Part shown: positions 27,001-33,000 of the stretch, piece by piece | How the letters are laid out: every line of letters begins with the position of its first letter | Position numbering within the stretch: position 1 is the stretch's first letter | Assembly: GCA_963677925.2 (NCBI GenBank) | Contig: CAXXYH010000004.1 | Coordinates: forward strand, 1,120,001-1,184,000 | Length of the DNA stretch: 64,000 bases | Direction: 5' to 3' | Source of the DNA: Spirochaetia bacterium | GTDB lineage: Bacteria > Spirochaetota > Spirochaetia > UBA9216 | Position numbers: made by a program

Positions 27001-30000
27001 TTATTTTAACTGTTTTAGGAGTAGTCTCAACAAGAATTTTGGATTTATTCACTACATATAAAATTACTCCGGATTTAGAGAAAGAAAGTAATTTATTTGT
27101 AAAGTTGCTTGGGGAAACTGGAGGTTGGGCAGCGATTTGGATATTTCAAGCAATTGTAGTAATTTTACTTCTCTATTTAGAATATTTAAGAATAAAAAGT
27201 CCAACCGTCGAATATGTAGAAGATGAGGGTTTGAAATTTAAAGAATATTTTTCATTAAATTATTCGAGTAAGAAAGATGATTTAATAAAATCAGTAATGA
27301 ATTTACCATTAAAGAAGAGGTTGATGATCGATCTATTAGGATATATTGGTACAAGAACTTTACTATTTGGAACAATTCCTGTCTGTTTATCAAGTCTGTT
27401 TGCGATTTTAAACTCTTCTTATCGAAGTTTCTATGTAGATAATAGTTTATGGAGAATACTGTATTTAATAATGGCAGTAGTATTAGTGAGTTTTTATATA
27501 AGATTTTTTTGGATAAGATTTAAGGATTATGAGAAGAAAGATATTTTAAAGAAAATGTAAGAAAGAGAGAAAGAGAGAAAGAGAGAAACCAGCCCTGGCT
27601 CCGCCGTACGGTCTGGCTGAAGAGGCGGAAACACAGCAGATAACAGCGGCTATGTGCGGCGTCGCTAAACGCTCCTTGGCCTACGGCATATTTTGTTTTG
27701 GCATCGCTTTTGCGAAGAGGTAGAAAAATATAGGGTAAAGGCGTCGAATGCAAAAGTGCTGCCAATCGGCCTGTAGGGCCGACCACAAAACATCACATAA
27801 CCGCGGGACGTTATAGGAAATATTTTGGCTAAGAGAAAGACGCCCGGACCTCCGGCCGACGGGCAATAAGGAAAAAAAGAATAAATTTTAAAATTGATAT
27901 ATTATGTCAATATATAAGAAATGAAACGTATTGAAAAGGATTCTATTATTTTTATTATTATTAGGAATAACCTCATGTAAAAACTTTTTTCCATATTATC
28001 AAAATGGATACCATTTCAATCAAATATTTTCTAAAGATACAAAACTTATTTTAGATGAAAAAGCAGATTCATTCTCTGCGTTTATATCTGAGACTTCTAA
28101 AGTTTTAGTATATTATAGTACTGATGGGATGGTGCACTTGATAGATTTGGAAGGATTGATTGAAGTTTCCACCATCCCTTGGGTTGATAATTCAAATTAT
28201 TATAATGATATTGTTCCTGATTTTAAACAATTGTATATTTATGAAAATTATTTGTATCTTCTAGGGTCAACAGATTGTCTGGTATATTTGATTGAGGATA
28301 TATCAAATCCATCTTTTAAATATTCTATTAGTGAAAATAATACCTATAATTTAAACACTACCTATTATTTAAGTTTAAGATGTATGGATAATAAAATATA
28401 TATTTTAGATTCTAATTCATTTTCATACTATAAACTATTATTAATTTTGGATGCAGATAATATGCTAGAAATTGAAAGACATTATTTAGATTCTTTTGAA
28501 GGAGTAATTGATAAAGAAATTTACTTAAATTCAAATTATTTATACACTTTTTCAAGTGAGCTTAAAATTGATAAAGATGGTAATCCTTTTACAATAACAA
28601 ATCAAATGATTGTTTATGATATTACTGATATTTCTAATAATTATGAATTGGTCGATATAAATTCTATCAGTTTAGAGGACAATGGATTTAATATATATAA
28701 TGATATTATAGTAAGTGATGGAGCAATAGGTTTAAATTCAGAAGAGTATTTTTGGAGCATAATAAAATTAGATAGTGAAAAAAATATGAATTTCTACAAA
28801 AATGTAATTCAACAGATGAAATAAACTTGTTTAGTTATTTTGATTTAGATTTTGATTTTAATAATATTTTAATCGGGAATTATTTTGTTTATGATATAAG
28901 AGAGTTAAATAGTCCAAGATGGATTGGGACTATTGATGAGGATTTGAAAGACATCGAAGTTGTAAGAAAACTTCAAACTGGAGATAACTTATTTTTATTT
29001 GAAAAAGGTAGTGATAGTGAGAATGAAATAGCTTTAGTGAAGTATGCTTTTAATTGATAAAGTTTGTTTTGGGATACTGTTAAAGTTGAAAGTTGTATGT
29101 TTAAGAGTCCAGCCCTATCTCCGATGTACGGTCTGGCTCAAGAGCCAAAATACTTCCTATAACAGGGGCTATATGCTCAGCCCATTCGGGCTTCGGGCTG
29201 CGCCACATTTTTATTTTATGGATTGGGCTATTTGGGTATAGCATTTAACAAAAGTTTTGGAGCAGTCCTGGCTATTGTCATGATTCTGGCAGAGACGTTC
29301 CGCGCTGATCGCGCTGCACTCCAGAATCACGCCAATGCGCGCGAAGACACGCGCCGCCATGCAGCTCAAAACGTCGTTAAATGCACAGACATGCGCCAAT
29401 AGTTTGTGATTGGTAAATACGGGTAAGTGGTGGTAAAATTAAAAAAATAAAAACGTCATATAACCCCGGGACGTTATGCGGACATCGCCGGAGCATGGTT
29501 ATGGGGTGGAGAAAGTTCCGAACAAGAAGTGATTACCAAATAGTTTGCAATATTCAATTCGCCCTAGATTGAGGAAGATTTTTGATTTTGATTTGGATGT
29601 TGTTGGAAGAAGGTCGTTAAAATTGACGAAGCTTGTTCTGGCGTGAAAGAAAAAGTATTGTCTTAAAATTATCAAAATCTTTTTTGAAGATGGAGCAGGT
29701 TTTACCATTTTGCAAGTCTGATTCACTCGCATAGCTCGTTGACTTGCGACTTAATAAAAATGATTGTTTTACTTGCAAAGGGCGAATAGAATATTGAGAA
29801 GAAATAGAAAGAGAAGATTGTATAGATTATTTGATTGATCGGAATCTTTCTCTAATAAAGGCGACGTCGCATAACAGGGCACATGCGGCTACGGGGTCAA
29901 GCCCCTTCGCCCAAATTGGCCTGCGGCCAACTTCGCATATGCCCGGGACGTTATGCGGACATCGCCGTAGCATGATCTTGGGGTGGAGAAAGTTCCGAAC

Positions 30001-33000
30001 CAGAAGTGATTACCAAATAGTTTGCAATATTCAATTCGCCCTGGATTGAGGGAGATTTTGGATTTTGATTTTGTGGTTGTCAGAAGAAAGCCGTTGCATC
30101 TGACGAAGTTTATTCTGACGTGGAAAAAAGTATTGTTTTATAATTATCAAAATCTGCTTCGTGGACTTGGCAGGGTTTTCCGTTTGGCAAGTCTGCCTCA
30201 CTCGCTTTGCTCGTTGACTTGCAGGTGAAATAAAAATGATTGTGAAAGTCGCAAAGGGCGAATAGAATATTGGGTAGAAATGGTAAGAGGAGATTTGTTA
30301 GGTCATTTGATTGATCGGAATCTTTCTCTAATAAAGGCGACGTCGCATAACAGGGCACATGCGGCTACGGGGGCAAGCCCCTTCGCCCAAATTGGCCTGC
30401 GGCCAACTTCGCATATGCCCGGGACGTTATAGGAAATGCCCATCAAAATCTTTGAAAGATCCTCGCCATCCATGGCTCGGTTTAGAAGAATAGAAAGAAG
30501 TTGACAATCCACTACAATGTAATTACAGTATAAATATGGAACATATCCAGTTTGAATGGGATAATAAGAAAGATGAGCTAAATCAGAAGAAGCATAAGAT
30601 AGGTTTTGACGAGGCAAAAACTGTATTTTATGATCCATCTGCATTGTTGATTCATGATCCAGATCATTCTGAAGATGAAGAAAGATTCATAATTATGGGG
30701 ATGAGTCAAAGCTTGAAGATCTTAGTTGTTTGTCATTGTTATAGATCTAATGATGAAGTTATACGAATAATATCTGCTAGAAAAGCAGAGAAAGAAGAGA
30801 TTAGGCAATATGGAGGATGAAGATATGAGAGATTCATATGATTTTTCGAATGCAAGAAAGAATCCTTACATTACAAAATTAAAGAAGCAAATCACAATCA
30901 GATTGGATGAAGAAACCATAGATTATTTTAAAGAGATGTCAGAAGAATCAGGGATAAAATATCAGCAATTAATAAATCTTTATCTGGCTGATTGTGCAAA
31001 GAAAAATCTAAAATTAAATATAAATTGGAAAGCCTCTTAAAGCCCAAAGTACGTCCTGTACTTTGGGTAAATAATAAAAGTGATGGGCACTTCCTATAAC
31101 AGGGGCTATGTGCTTCGTCGCTATGCGCTCCTCGGGCTGCGCCACATACGGCTTACGCCGTACGTCACATAACCCCTGGACGTTAGCTGAAATGCCCCCG
31201 CGAAGAGAAAGACGCCCGGACCTCCGGCCGGCGGGCGATAAGGAAATTATAATATGCATAATTGATTTACAAGTCTAAATATAGTACTATATAAGCACTA
31301 ATAGGAGTTTATTATGAATTTAAGAGAAGATATTAAGCCGATTTCATATATTAAAACAAACGCAGCAGACATGTTAAAACGTGTTAATGATACTCACAAC
31401 CCGATTGTAATAACCCAGAATGGTGAAGCAAAAGCAGTTTTGATGGATACTGAATCATATCAAGAAATGAGGAATAGTCTTGGAATTTTAAAATTGCTTG
31501 CAGAAGGTGAACGTGATATCGAAAAGGGAGATATCTATACACAAGATGAAGTTTTTGAAGAAATTGAAGCAAAACTGTTAAATATGAAGAAGAAATAATG
31601 ATATGGAAGTTATTTGGACTAAAACAGCAAAAAATGATTTAAATGAGATAGTTGAATATATAGCAAATGACTCTGTAGAAATAGCATTAAATAAATTTTA
31701 TGAAATTAGAGAAAGTACTAAACCCTTAGAGAAATTTCCTGAACAAGGAAGACTGATTCCAGAATTAAGAAATGAAAACATCTTGCGATATAGGGAAATT
31801 ATAATAAACCCATGGCGGATAATGTATAAAATAGAAGATAAGAAAGTTTATATTATAGCAGTCATAGATGGAAGAAGAAATGTTGAAGATGTTTTAATGA
31901 AAAGGCAACTTCGTTAAAGAAACATTAAAAGAATCCAGACCTAACTCCGTCGAACGGTCTGGATGAAGAGCGGGGGCACTACAGCTAACAGGGGCTATGT
32001 GCATCGTCGCTATACGCTCCTCGGGCGCGCCACATACGGCTTCGCCGTACGTCACATAACCCCGGGACGTTAGACGAAATCACGAACCTAAGAGAAAGAG
32101 GATGCTTGCCATCCTTGGCAAGCAAAGATTGACAAATTTATGTAATTACTATATAATTACAATAAAGAGGTGTATTATGTTAGTTTCAGTGGTTCCTATA
32201 GGCAATTCAAAAGGAATACGAATTCCGAAGAGCATTTTGCAACAGTTAAATATTGAAGAAAAAGTTGAATTAGAAGTGCATAATACAGAAATACTGATTA
32301 GACCAATAAAGAAAAAGCCAAGGGAAGGATGGTCCGAAGAGTTTATGAAGATGCATCAAAATGGGGATGATTCATTACTTTTAGACAATTTGACTGAACA
32401 GGGTGATTTTGAATGGGAATGGTAATTCATCAATATGAGGTATATTTAATAAACTTAGATCCAACAGTTGGCCATGAAATAAAAAAGACAAGACCTTGTT
32501 TAGTGATTTCACCAAATGAAATGAATGAAACAATCCAGACTATTATTATCGCTCCAATGACAACAAAATCACATACATATCCTACTCGTGTAGCTGTTAA
32601 GTTTCAAAATAAAGATGGATGGATTGTTTTAGATCAATTAAGAACTGTTGATAGGAAGAGATTAATTAAAAAGATTGGTAAAATAAATAGAAAAGAAGTA
32701 GATCTCGTCAAGAATGTGCTACAGGAAATGTTAATAGATTAAAGCCAAACAACATCCATGTTGCTTGGCTTTGAAGAAGGTTCGTGACATCGTCTAACAA
32801 GGGTTATTCGCTCGTCACTACGCTCCTCGGGCTGCGCCACATACGGCTTCGCCGTACGTCACATAACCCCGGAACGTTATCCGAAATATTGTGGCTTGAA
32901 GAAACTCGCCTTCCTTGGCTCGTTAGAAAGAATTAAGATTGATAAAAATTAAAAAGTGTTGTACAATGTACATATGAGCATATTGGTAGATGCAAACATA

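Follow-up and report, generated by a model that had tools for sequence, protein, structure and literature searches.

Two tandem integron cassettes without a gene, W1 and W2, were found in the window, a stretch of 64,000 nucleotides from a Spirochaetia bacterium (contig CAXXYH010000004.1, positions 1,120,001 to 1,184,000; coordinates below count from its first letter), and their sole cargo, a sequence of about 390 nt, appears to be under selection for folding as a single strand. A structured RNA read from the sense strand is tentatively preferred as the explanation, at somewhat less than an even chance, followed by a fold acting as single-stranded DNA and then by a cassette selected for a promoter. 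A new RNA, a DNA fold for cassette movement and a promoter carrier are all candidates for what the family is. What was observed is that no ORF is conserved, that pairing is, that the helix arms hardly vary and that the family has multiple copies.

The cassettes belong to a chromosomal integron of a Spirochaetia genus. Its integrase gene intI (18043..19116, plus strand; Pfam Phage_integrase, E 2.3e-42, with an N-terminal SAM-like domain) has orthologues in 11 of 11 genomes of the family and is oriented in the same direction as the cassettes, the 'reverse' integron layout. The array lies 3′ of intI as a region of low GC at about 19-45 kb of the window, with junctions at which ...GGGACG is followed by TTA.. 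all along it. Both cassettes are A-type and on the plus strand: W1 (477 nt, 29474..29950) consists of a body at 29474-29875 and an attC interior at 29876-29950, and W2 (476 nt, 29951..30426) of a body at 29951-30351 and an attC interior at 30352-30426. Each starts at the T after the first G of GTTATGC and ends in ...GGGACG, and their identity is 86% over the whole cassette and 84% over the body. The next cassette encodes BrnT/BrnA. As expected of integron cassettes, the array adjoins intI, core sites bound the family members and their contexts vary: all 17 known copies open, immediately 3′ of a G, with TTATGC or TTATAC and close with their own attC, in which ATAAC...GTTA pairs, and the neighbours up- and downstream differ among the 17.

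BLAST and nhmmer both gave two copies in this genome and 15 in the sister genome G001; these counts and the coordinates of the two tandem cassettes agree with the earlier note. G001 holds ten A-type copies (472-483 nt) and five B-type copies (561-563 nt) inside about 21 kb of its array, where a family copy recurs every 2-4 kb. The division into two subfamilies stood, but the identity of about 63% claimed between them did not, the A and B bodies being 59-62% identical. The W1 body is 84-85% identical to each other A copy, and the W2 body 88-92% to the A copies of G001. For copy A_15317 the attC interior is 100% identical to that of W1, but the body is only 85% identical to W1 and 99-100% identical to most other G001 copies; judged from these sequences, bodies and attC interiors have had discordant histories. 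Coding cassettes have multiplied in G001 as well, for example one that is present three times in tandem (7153-9643 of the reverse-complemented region).

The restriction to one genus was confirmed, with the family present in 2 of 401 genomes of the class, a genome_contigs search matching only the G001 record, and no matches among viral sequences or, with two patterns, in a metagenome search. A-type copies with differences were again located on contigs of other runs, X3 and X4 from one study and X5 from another. No run registered as RNA contained the stretch. The family resembles nothing else in the arrays. At E≤1 there was no Rfam match in 20-45 kb of the window, as claimed before, and likewise none in 36 kb of G001. 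A remnant of a group II (IIC-attC) intron was not supported by the same searches, which matched no Rfam family of any kind.

The fold was derived with RNAalifold from an alignment of 17 rows, which, with attC counted in, gave 79 pairs for the full cassette. Its outermost helix, P0 (plus strand; W1 29474-29489 with 29860-29875, ending in the R″ GCATAAC; W2 29951-29966 with 30336-30351), is the standard arm of this integron's cassettes and not specific to the family, most cassettes of the integron clade having one. An arm of about 20 nt, scored as at least 15 of 20 bases complementary between cassette start and R″ arm, was present in 26 distinct cassette types from four genomes, and its position 10 was mismatched in every one of them (A.C in 21, A.A in 5). 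As in attC sites, the R″ side pairs with the R′ side and also with the cassette start, through P0 and its extension. The helix set described earlier as conserved is thus family-specific in its inner part, P1-P4, but generic in its outermost helix. The inner helices nest coaxially on the P0 arm, P1 beginning at nt 36 after 16 nt of arm.

The family-specific core comprises 40 pairs in nested helices P1 to P4, all given here on the plus strand. P1 (W1 29509-29521 with 29839-29852, 13 bp and one bulge; W2 29986-29998 with 30315-30328) has 13 bp in A and 10 bp in B and shows one G-C to A-U double change between them. P2 (W1 29549-29565 with 29779-29795, 16 pairs; W2 30026-30042 with 30255-30271) is 16-17 bp long and differs between A and B by two double changes and by a further two pairs that became G-U. 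P3, of 9-11 bp, was found at 29582-29592 with 29671-29681 in W1, where the outer two pairs are U.U and 9 bp remain, and at 30059-30069 with 30146-30156 in W2, where the outer two of 11 pairs are G.U. Hairpin P4 (W1 29712-29717 with 29742-29747; W2 30187-30192 with 30217-30222) has a 6-bp stem and a conserved 24-nt loop, and A and B differ in it by two neighbouring double changes. Together these helices make up a multi-branch core that includes conserved blocks without pairing and ends in variable tips.

Long-range pairing in the family is genuinely conserved, more than chance would give. Of the 640 cells that make up the 40 core pairs, 99.2% are paired, compared with 39.1-51.4% after sliding, and none of 500 shuffles attained the score, in line with the earlier result, although these figures are inflated by helix limits that RNAalifold set with both families in view. 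Between the A and B consensus sequences 9 of the 40 pairs change and all nine remain paired (five by double changes, four to or from G-U). Simulation at the substitution rate of the helices gave a probability of 0.00028 for at least five compensated doubles, and 0 of 100,000 such runs held all pairs with at least 14 changed columns. The number of core pairs with double changes did not exceed that of shuffles (control a), at 5 versus 4.5, 297 of 500 shuffles reaching 5. Over the whole body eight pairs, not the seven claimed, are changed on both sides; they do lie in five helices and, as was claimed, every one of them comes from the single split between A and B. P1-P4 thus remain paired across that split, bearing out the conserved nested helices first described. 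When an A-only consensus fold of 120 pairs was held against B, 77 were pairable compared with 46-59 when slid, so that only the core of the fold survives.

The helix arms are nearly invariant while the remainder of the body drifts. Changed columns numbered 2 of 92 in helices and 58 of 280 elsewhere for W1, 0 of 92 and 31 of 280 for W2, and 0 of 92 and 29 of 282 for A_11328 (Fisher p≤4e-4 in each). Within-family changes in helices were four disruptive and one to a wobble: U.U twice in P3 of W1, A.A in P3 of A_17747 and A_20108, C.U in P2 of B_5630, and the sole change to G.U in A_6193. Between A and B the helices changed at 17.5% and the loops at 42.5%, the opposite of many RNAs.

Evidence for the strand on which the fold acts is slight. 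All 40 consensus pairs are standard on the plus strand in both families, while on the minus strand two core pairs in A and two in B turn A.C. A 5′ hairpin (columns 11-19 with 29-36) has two double changes and three to four G.U pairs on the plus strand only. The direction claimed for G-U pairs was seen, but the preference is weak: the plus strand is rich in G+T (A 0.30, C 0.14, G 0.24, T 0.32), so that G.T would exceed A.C about 2:1 by chance, and a pair flanking P2 (columns 77/330) favours the minus strand in B. Compared with shuffles, folding is significantly better for either strand, with RNA parameters (z-scores of −3.25 and −3.43 for plus, −5.07 and −3.92 for minus) and DNA parameters (−5.27 and −4.36) alike.

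In the preferred reading we infer that the cassette is transcribed, that the RNA is the acting form and that it has a function. The array would be transcribed from upstream promoters, for example the promoter-like site of the preceding attC or the one that an earlier family copy has in its 3′ third, and the cassette RNA would fold into a compact multi-helix domain of P0, the nested P1, P2 and P3, the inner hairpin P4 and conserved joining stretches. Its conserved loops, namely that of P4 and the segment joining P4 to P2, would act as the functional surface toward a protein or a second nucleic acid, and the 3′-third site would probably restart transcription into the next cassette. The architecture is RNA-like in that P3 and P4 are conserved though needless for merely joining cassette ends. 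Against this, the nesting of all helices on the attC arm is what is expected of a DNA fold in an excised circle. Because of that nesting, the cassette offers no space for a promoter 5′ of the fold; no promoter-like site was found there, and no terminator-like site within 29100-30700. The origin of the double changes in one split and the weak strand preference also count against it, and so do the mostly disruptive helix changes within families, the loss of all but the core when the A-only fold was held against B, the stronger conservation of helices than of loops, z-scores on plus that do not better those on minus or those with DNA parameters, and the confinement to one genus. What the earlier note proposed as a structured RNA is partly supported, for the non-coding sequence, the conserved pairing and the absence of an Rfam match; that RNA is the acting form is not established.

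The upstream site that had been reported near copy 1 is present at 29410..29439 (TTGGTA-18-TAAAAT, plus strand, 9/12 matches, TG before the second hexamer), but it is not specific to the element, being part of a long attC variant whose tail with this site recurs at junctions 22836, 24075, 25357 and 29469.

A possible but less likely explanation is that the fold acts as single-stranded DNA, either within the circle formed on excision or where array DNA is single-stranded. Integron recombination acts on folded single strands, and the bottom strand is the one recombined by integrases. P0-P3 would extend the attC stem into one long imperfect hairpin that juxtaposes the flanking attC sites or stabilises the attC of the circle, so that integrase would excise, insert and duplicate it more often, as a 'structure-only' and possibly selfish cassette. 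The generic nature of P0, on which P1-P3 nest exactly, points this way, as do the long, AT-rich and near-perfect helices, their folding with DNA parameters, the missing ORF, the crowding of copies in G001 and the discordance in A_15317. attC sites themselves form ssDNA hairpins, and motifs of RNA and ssDNA are described as hard to distinguish by sequence (Weinberg et al., PMC5737381); selfish elements are one of two kinds of proposal made by Boucher et al. (PMC1382264). Consensus wobbles in P2 and P3 fit the top strand, however, while the generic arm bears a bottom-strand signature (A.C on top, hence G.T on bottom, in 21 of 26 types), a comparison of small numbers in sequence of biased composition. 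The conserved unpaired blocks and P4 are needless for joining cassette ends, the multiplied coding cassettes of G001 mean that copy number need not reflect the fold, and, at −26.3, the duplex energy of the A copies' own ends is unexceptional among cassettes.

Less probable again, and compatible with either form of the fold, is that what selection maintains is a putative promoter of sigma-70 type, sense-oriented and located in the 3′ third, from which the following cassette or cassettes would be expressed, the long inverted repeats being incidental or secondary. The site lies at 29764..29792 in W1 (TTGTTT-17-TAGAAT, with the second hexamer in the 3′ arm of P2) and at 30240..30268 in W2 (TTGTGA-17-TAGAAT, 9/12 matches), both on the plus strand with an A-rich tract 5′. 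It is directed at the next cassette, and its second hexamer is identical in 17/17 copies, its first in 15/17 and the 17-nt spacing in 17/17, despite divergence of the spacer sequence between A and B; the scatter of copies every 2-4 kb in G001 is also consistent with such a role. Sense promoter activity was reported for most of 29 gene-less Vibrio cassettes (PMC11014356), and activity also for ORF-less cassettes attributed to Treponema (PMC6557892). Yet the site accounts for about 60 of the roughly 390 bases that are conserved and fold, and leaves the frozen 5′ arms of P1, P2 and P3 and the pair covariation unexplained. Matches of this quality are common, nine against 3.5 ± 2.0 expected from shuffles of 1.6 kb, and the BrnT/BrnA cassette after W2 has its own promoter-like site at 30501-30529.

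The family is non-coding, and a decayed protein gene or a small peptide gene is disfavoured as very improbable. Short ORFs do occur, one of 69 aa with a TTG start as the longest in A (intact in 7/12 copies) and one of 50 aa with an ATG start in 5/5 B copies, and they have a common frame over part of their length. In the remaining five A copies the frame is shifted by a length change in a poly-T homopolymer, W1 retains only 33 aa, and none of the five longest ORFs matched a Pfam family above cut-off. The 1-nt indels noted before inside nucleotide-conserved blocks were seen again in the alignment of A and B, the frames differing across columns 195-213, and no frame is preserved from one subfamily to the other, in agreement with the lack of a conserved ORF stated earlier. 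Least probable of all, and likewise disfavoured, is a MITE-like, transposon-derived palindromic repeat landed in cassettes, which the nested inverted repeats and many copies would suit, since core sites bound each full copy exactly, no other array sequence is alike and this genome has no copy outside the array (BLAST: two full matches, one to attC only and one of 28 nt).

Among known systems, attC sites and attC-like multistem motifs such as DUF1874 (Weinberg et al. 2017, PMC5737381) are likewise array-linked single-strand folds flagged as 'RNA' candidates by structure-finding methods, and the outer helix of the element is part of an attC arm. Unlike attC, the element is cargo between two ordinary attC sites, has a branched core and exceeds the attC interiors of these cassettes four- to fivefold in length. 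With sRNA-Xcc1, a trans-acting small RNA from an ORF-less integron cassette of Xanthomonas (cited in PMC6557892), it has in common a non-coding RNA, here a candidate, as cassette cargo; sRNA-Xcc1 is a small RNA with shown expression, whereas the multi-helix fold of about 390 nt is predicted from sequence and has no promoter-like site before it or terminator-like site after it. Gene-less or ORF-less promoter cassettes (Blanco et al. 2024, PMC11014356; Tansirichaiya et al. 2019, PMC6557892), the 2019 set being attributed to Treponema, a spirochaete with a 'reverse' integron, resemble W1 and W2 in lacking a conserved ORF, residing in a sedentary chromosomal integron and having a sense sigma-70-like site toward the next cassette. 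In W1 and W2 that site is a putative promoter, a conserved consensus match, and a small share of the conserved sequence, and the long-range helices have no counterpart in the available text of those descriptions.

The earlier suggestion of a new kind of element was overstated, as paralogous, genus-limited non-coding cassettes have already been described in Vibrio chromosomal integrons (Boucher et al. 2006, PMC1382264). Those cassettes have up to 45 paralogues in V. vulnificus and highly conserved sequence with suspected gene conversion, and were proposed to be selfish elements, or promoters or RNAs acting on the integron, possibly 'transcribed as RNA molecules'. The present family is alike in having no ORF, many paralogues in one array and homologues in the genus only. 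It comes from a different phylum, with no sequence likeness expected, and while the available text on Vibrio has no occurrence of 'secondary structure' and describes no conserved fold, the multi-helix fold with compensatory changes is here the main conserved feature.

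Two neighbouring gene-less cassettes, W1 (window 29474-29950, 477 nt) and W2 (29951-30426, 476 nt), each start with the T after the G of the core site and end with their attC, and they are 86% identical over the whole cassette and 84% over the body. The units and counts of the earlier note, two tandem non-coding cassettes of 476-477 nt with 2 copies here and 15 in the sister genome, were reproduced. In the sister genome 10 A-type and 5 B-type copies lie inside about 21 kb, and the bodies of the two types are 59-62% identical. Also reproduced were the narrow distribution, with the family in 2/401 genomes of the class, the absence of any Rfam match at E<=1 for either subfamily, and the occurrence elsewhere of copies with differences, which are A-type and lie on contigs of three other sequencing runs from two studies. 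A pattern for the P4 loop matched the sister-genome record as the sole genome_contigs entry and 0 viral and 0 metagenome contigs, and a second pattern, from the 5′ block to P2, matched 0 metagenome contigs. In three sister-genus genomes, nhmmer --max with a profile of the 17 bodies gave noise only in the 90 kb downstream of intI (E 4.2 and 7.1). When the A and B bodies were compared with the other cassettes by short-word BLAST, only chance matches of 13-26 nt appeared.

RNAalifold over all 17 cassettes gave an outermost helix P0 (alignment columns 1-6 with 407-412), the nested helices P1 (columns 37-43 with 383-389, longer within each family), P2 (78-94 with 313-329), P3 (111-121 with 202-212) and P4 (245-250 with 275-280), and a few small hairpins. 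In the 40 pairs of P1-P4, the limits of which were picked with knowledge of both families, 99.2% of cells are paired against 39-51% when slid. The A and B consensus sequences differ in 9 pairs, 5 of them through changes on both sides, and all 9 still pair, so the nested long-range helices previously claimed to be shared by the copies are kept across the A/B split. When A helices were mutated in simulation at the helix rate with the spectrum of the rest of the body, five or more compensated doubles arose with P = 0.00028 and all pairs were never retained. Evidence independent of the A/B split comes from three A lineages compared with the sister-genome consensus, where helix columns changed in 2/92, 0/92 and 0/92 cases and the other columns in 58/280, 31/280 and 29/282. 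Single-sequence folds beat shuffles with z of -3.3 to -5.3. From conserved pairing, frozen helix columns and fold z-scores together it follows that selection on the complementary arms of P1-P4 is real.

The double changes put forward in the earlier note are present, five of them in the P1-P4 core, but every one separates A from B and thus belongs to one event-rich split, and the number of doubly changed pairs is not above that of shuffles. Within families, one helix change leads to G.U and four give disruptive states. Outside the core, the fold predicted from one family is not kept in the other (77/120 pairs pairable versus 46-59 when slid), and minimum-energy helices beyond P0-P4 and two small hairpins were dropped, most of them not being carried over between families. 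In a 5′ hairpin of columns 11-19 with 29-36 (window 29484-29508 and 29961-29985), A and B differ by two double changes. The cassette-specific 5′ arm can take either of two partners, the R'' arm, forming P0, or a conserved GGGGTGG block immediately downstream; as P0 and the 5′ hairpin are mutually exclusive, the arm could act as a switch.

P0 itself is not peculiar to the family. For each cassette-like interval the initial 20 nt were compared with the sequence that closes with the R'' box, at a cut-off of at least 15/20 complementary positions, and 29/82 intervals from the window, the sister genome and two sister-genus genomes, representing 26 distinct types, carried the arm; the other 53 are uncurated and include mis-set boundaries, multi-cassette intervals and copies of the family, for which a 1-nt gap is needed. 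Position 10 is mismatched in all 26 types, as A opposite C in 21 and A opposite A in 5, and 11 of the 26 have A opposite A at position 9. Positions 11-20 vary from cassette to cassette with complementarity kept, and by duplex energy the own 3′ arm was bound better than the mean of other cassettes' arms in 9/10 window cassettes. Most cassettes, coding ones included, have such a cassette-specific arm, their first ~20 nt being reverse-complementary to the ~20 nt that end in R''. Examples in window 20877-34617 start at 20877, 24080, 25362, 25910, 26870, 27811, 32070 and 33720, and others lie in loci L021 and L022 of the sister genome and L027-L030 of the sister-genus genomes G091 and G002. With an arm of this length the circle formed on excision would have an R-box stem of about 20 bp and not 7. 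Since the same type of arm is found in 26 cassette types, P0 of the element is the integron's ordinary cassette-end arm, with P1-P3 stacked upon it, and once the cassette is excised as a circle, the attC stem, P0, P1, P2 and P3 would form a single nested series. No description of a cassette-specific arm of ~20 nt was found in the literature outside subscription journals and supplements.

A structured RNA, as the earlier note proposed, is the best single reading of the candidate fold, and it is adopted here tentatively: the real, selected, non-coding cassette family stands, while RNA as the acting form stays a candidate. The branched core, the conserved unpaired blocks and the conservation of the inner helices argue for RNA, but neither a promoter-like site before the fold nor a terminator-like site is present. 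All 40 consensus pairs are standard on the + strand, while reading the - strand turns two of them to A.C in each family. The claimed preference of G-U pairs for the plus strand is weak: that strand is G+T rich and one flanking pair favours the - strand. The 5′ hairpin with its two double changes forms on the + strand only, and the generic arm has a strand signature opposite to that of the P1-P4 consensus pairs. Fold energies computed with RNA and with DNA parameters for both strands gave no discrimination. According to the excerpted text of Weinberg et al., sequence alone cannot reliably assign such motifs to RNA or single-stranded DNA, and attC sites had earlier turned up as 'RNA' motifs (PMC5737381).

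Less likely than RNA, at a rather low probability, is a single-stranded DNA fold serving recombination, which would agree with the nesting of the helices on the attC arm, with the length, near-perfect pairing and AT-richness of the helices, and with the same absence of promoter-like and terminator-like sites that counts against RNA. Somewhat less probable is a promoter cassette, a function that may coexist with either an RNA or a DNA fold. The two longest invariant blocks, GATTGTGAAAGTC and CGAATAGAATATT, hold TTGTGA and TAGAAT with a spacing of 17 nt in 17/17 copies, 3′ of an A-rich tract, and A and B have different spacer sequences; this candidate site matches the pattern of a sense promoter directed into the next cassette. 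Sense promoter function was demonstrated for most tested gene-less Vibrio cassettes (abstract of PMC11014356) and for Treponema-linked ORF-less cassettes (excerpt of PMC6557892), but matches of such quality are common by chance, and a promoter leaves the frozen 5′ arms and the covariation unexplained. A second promoter-like site, CTGACG-18-TATAAT at 30115-30144, was rejected, because its spacer measures 18 nt in W2 alone, against 20 nt in all remaining A copies and 22 nt in the B type. A coding reading was dropped, in line with the conserved ORF already reported absent, because no frame is kept between A and B, with single-base indels within nucleotide-conserved blocks, 7/12 A copies keep the longest A ORF whole and a change in T-run length disrupts it in the remainder, and a Pfam search of five ORFs gave no family above cut-off; a MITE reading was likewise rejected. 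The element is confirmed as a real, selected, non-coding cassette family.

The bodies in the sister genome are 91-100% identical, yet they are paired with three unrelated attC interiors. One A copy there, A_15317 (L022:2206-2684), has an attC interior 100% identical to that of W1 (29876-29950, alignment columns 418-580), with bodies 85% identical. This discordance points to reassortment of body and attC, or to gene conversion confined to the body; homogenisation of paralogous cassettes was suspected in Vibrio by Boucher et al. (excerpt of PMC1382264). Multiplication in the sister genome is not limited to the gene-less family, coding cassettes being triplicated too. One such tandem triplicate (L022, positions 7153-9643 of the reverse-complemented merged stretch) carries a 13-nt tandem repeat (AAGAAGAAAGATT) 3′ of the ORF, the repeat number of which varies among the three copies. 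Family copies are no more often adjacent than expected by chance: 8/17 come straight after another copy, and about 7 are expected in random order (15 family and ~16 other cassettes).

The window contains a sedentary chromosomal integron, whose tyrosine-recombinase gene intI is encoded by the + strand (18043-19116; Pfam Phage_integrase E 2.3e-42). The array that follows intI, at about 19 to 45 kb, is low in GC (0.31-0.37 versus 0.41-0.50 outside), and junctions of the form ...GGGACG/TTA.., the slash marking the boundary, are repeated all along it. Its cargo is typical of cassettes: Shedu, toxin-antitoxin cassettes, acetyltransferases and methyltransferases. A Shedu SduA C-terminal domain (E 1.9e-12) was recognised in the first large ORF after intI (19188-20735), which places a defence gene at the head of the array. 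Several toxin-antitoxin cassettes come after it: BrnT/BrnA (30536-31040), Phd/ParE (31314-31917), MazE/MazF (32102-32742) and PIN (32956-33366 and 34077-34475). In many coding cassettes the ribosome-binding site is preceded by a shared, conserved 5′ leader that contains a GC-rich hairpin (..GACGCCCGGACC..CGGGC..), as at 27811-27874, 31183-31246 and 20877-20920 and in many sister-genome cassettes. Those with the leader also have a conserved hairpin CCAG.CC...GGTCTGG directly 5′ of the R'' arm, and leader and trailer may base-pair with each other. A long attC variant of ~316 nt (29158-29473), whose tail recurs at 22836, 24075 and 25357 (four junctions in all), holds a promoter-like TTGGTA-18-TAAAAT immediately 5′ of the next cassette. 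Its segment 29300-29386 has high summed depth, with many contigs of the three other runs, indicating a repeat or a conserved piece present elsewhere too.

The fold itself may be the family's cargo, which would account for the lack of a gene; it would act either as a large branched RNA of ~390 nt working on the integron or its transcripts or as a DNA hairpin extending the attC stem, through which the cassette exploits the integrase for its own multiplication. We consider this proposal rather doubtful. With the DNA form, if true, a cassette would for the first time be shown to spread through its structure alone, and either form would make the long-standing puzzle of abundant non-coding cassettes testable with one well-defined family. 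The cassette-end arm with its fixed mismatch may matter equally for recombination of the little-studied 'reverse' integrons, a layout seen here in the like orientation of intI and cassettes and reported in Treponema denticola (excerpt of PMC6557892). The share of non-coding cassettes is 6-49% in Vibrio arrays (excerpt of PMC1382264) and 20% in an oral cassette set linked to Treponema (excerpt of PMC6557892), and their role is settled solely where promoter activity is present. The family is a clean case, with two diverged subfamilies, frozen or compensated helix arms, a conserved promoter-like site and 2 versus 15 copies between sister species. In the literature outside subscription journals and supplements, no large conserved fold was found described as cassette cargo. 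Multi-copy, genus-limited non-coding cassettes are already known from Vibrio, as excerpts of PMC1382264 report, and what is new relative to known non-coding cassettes is the well-defined conserved fold.
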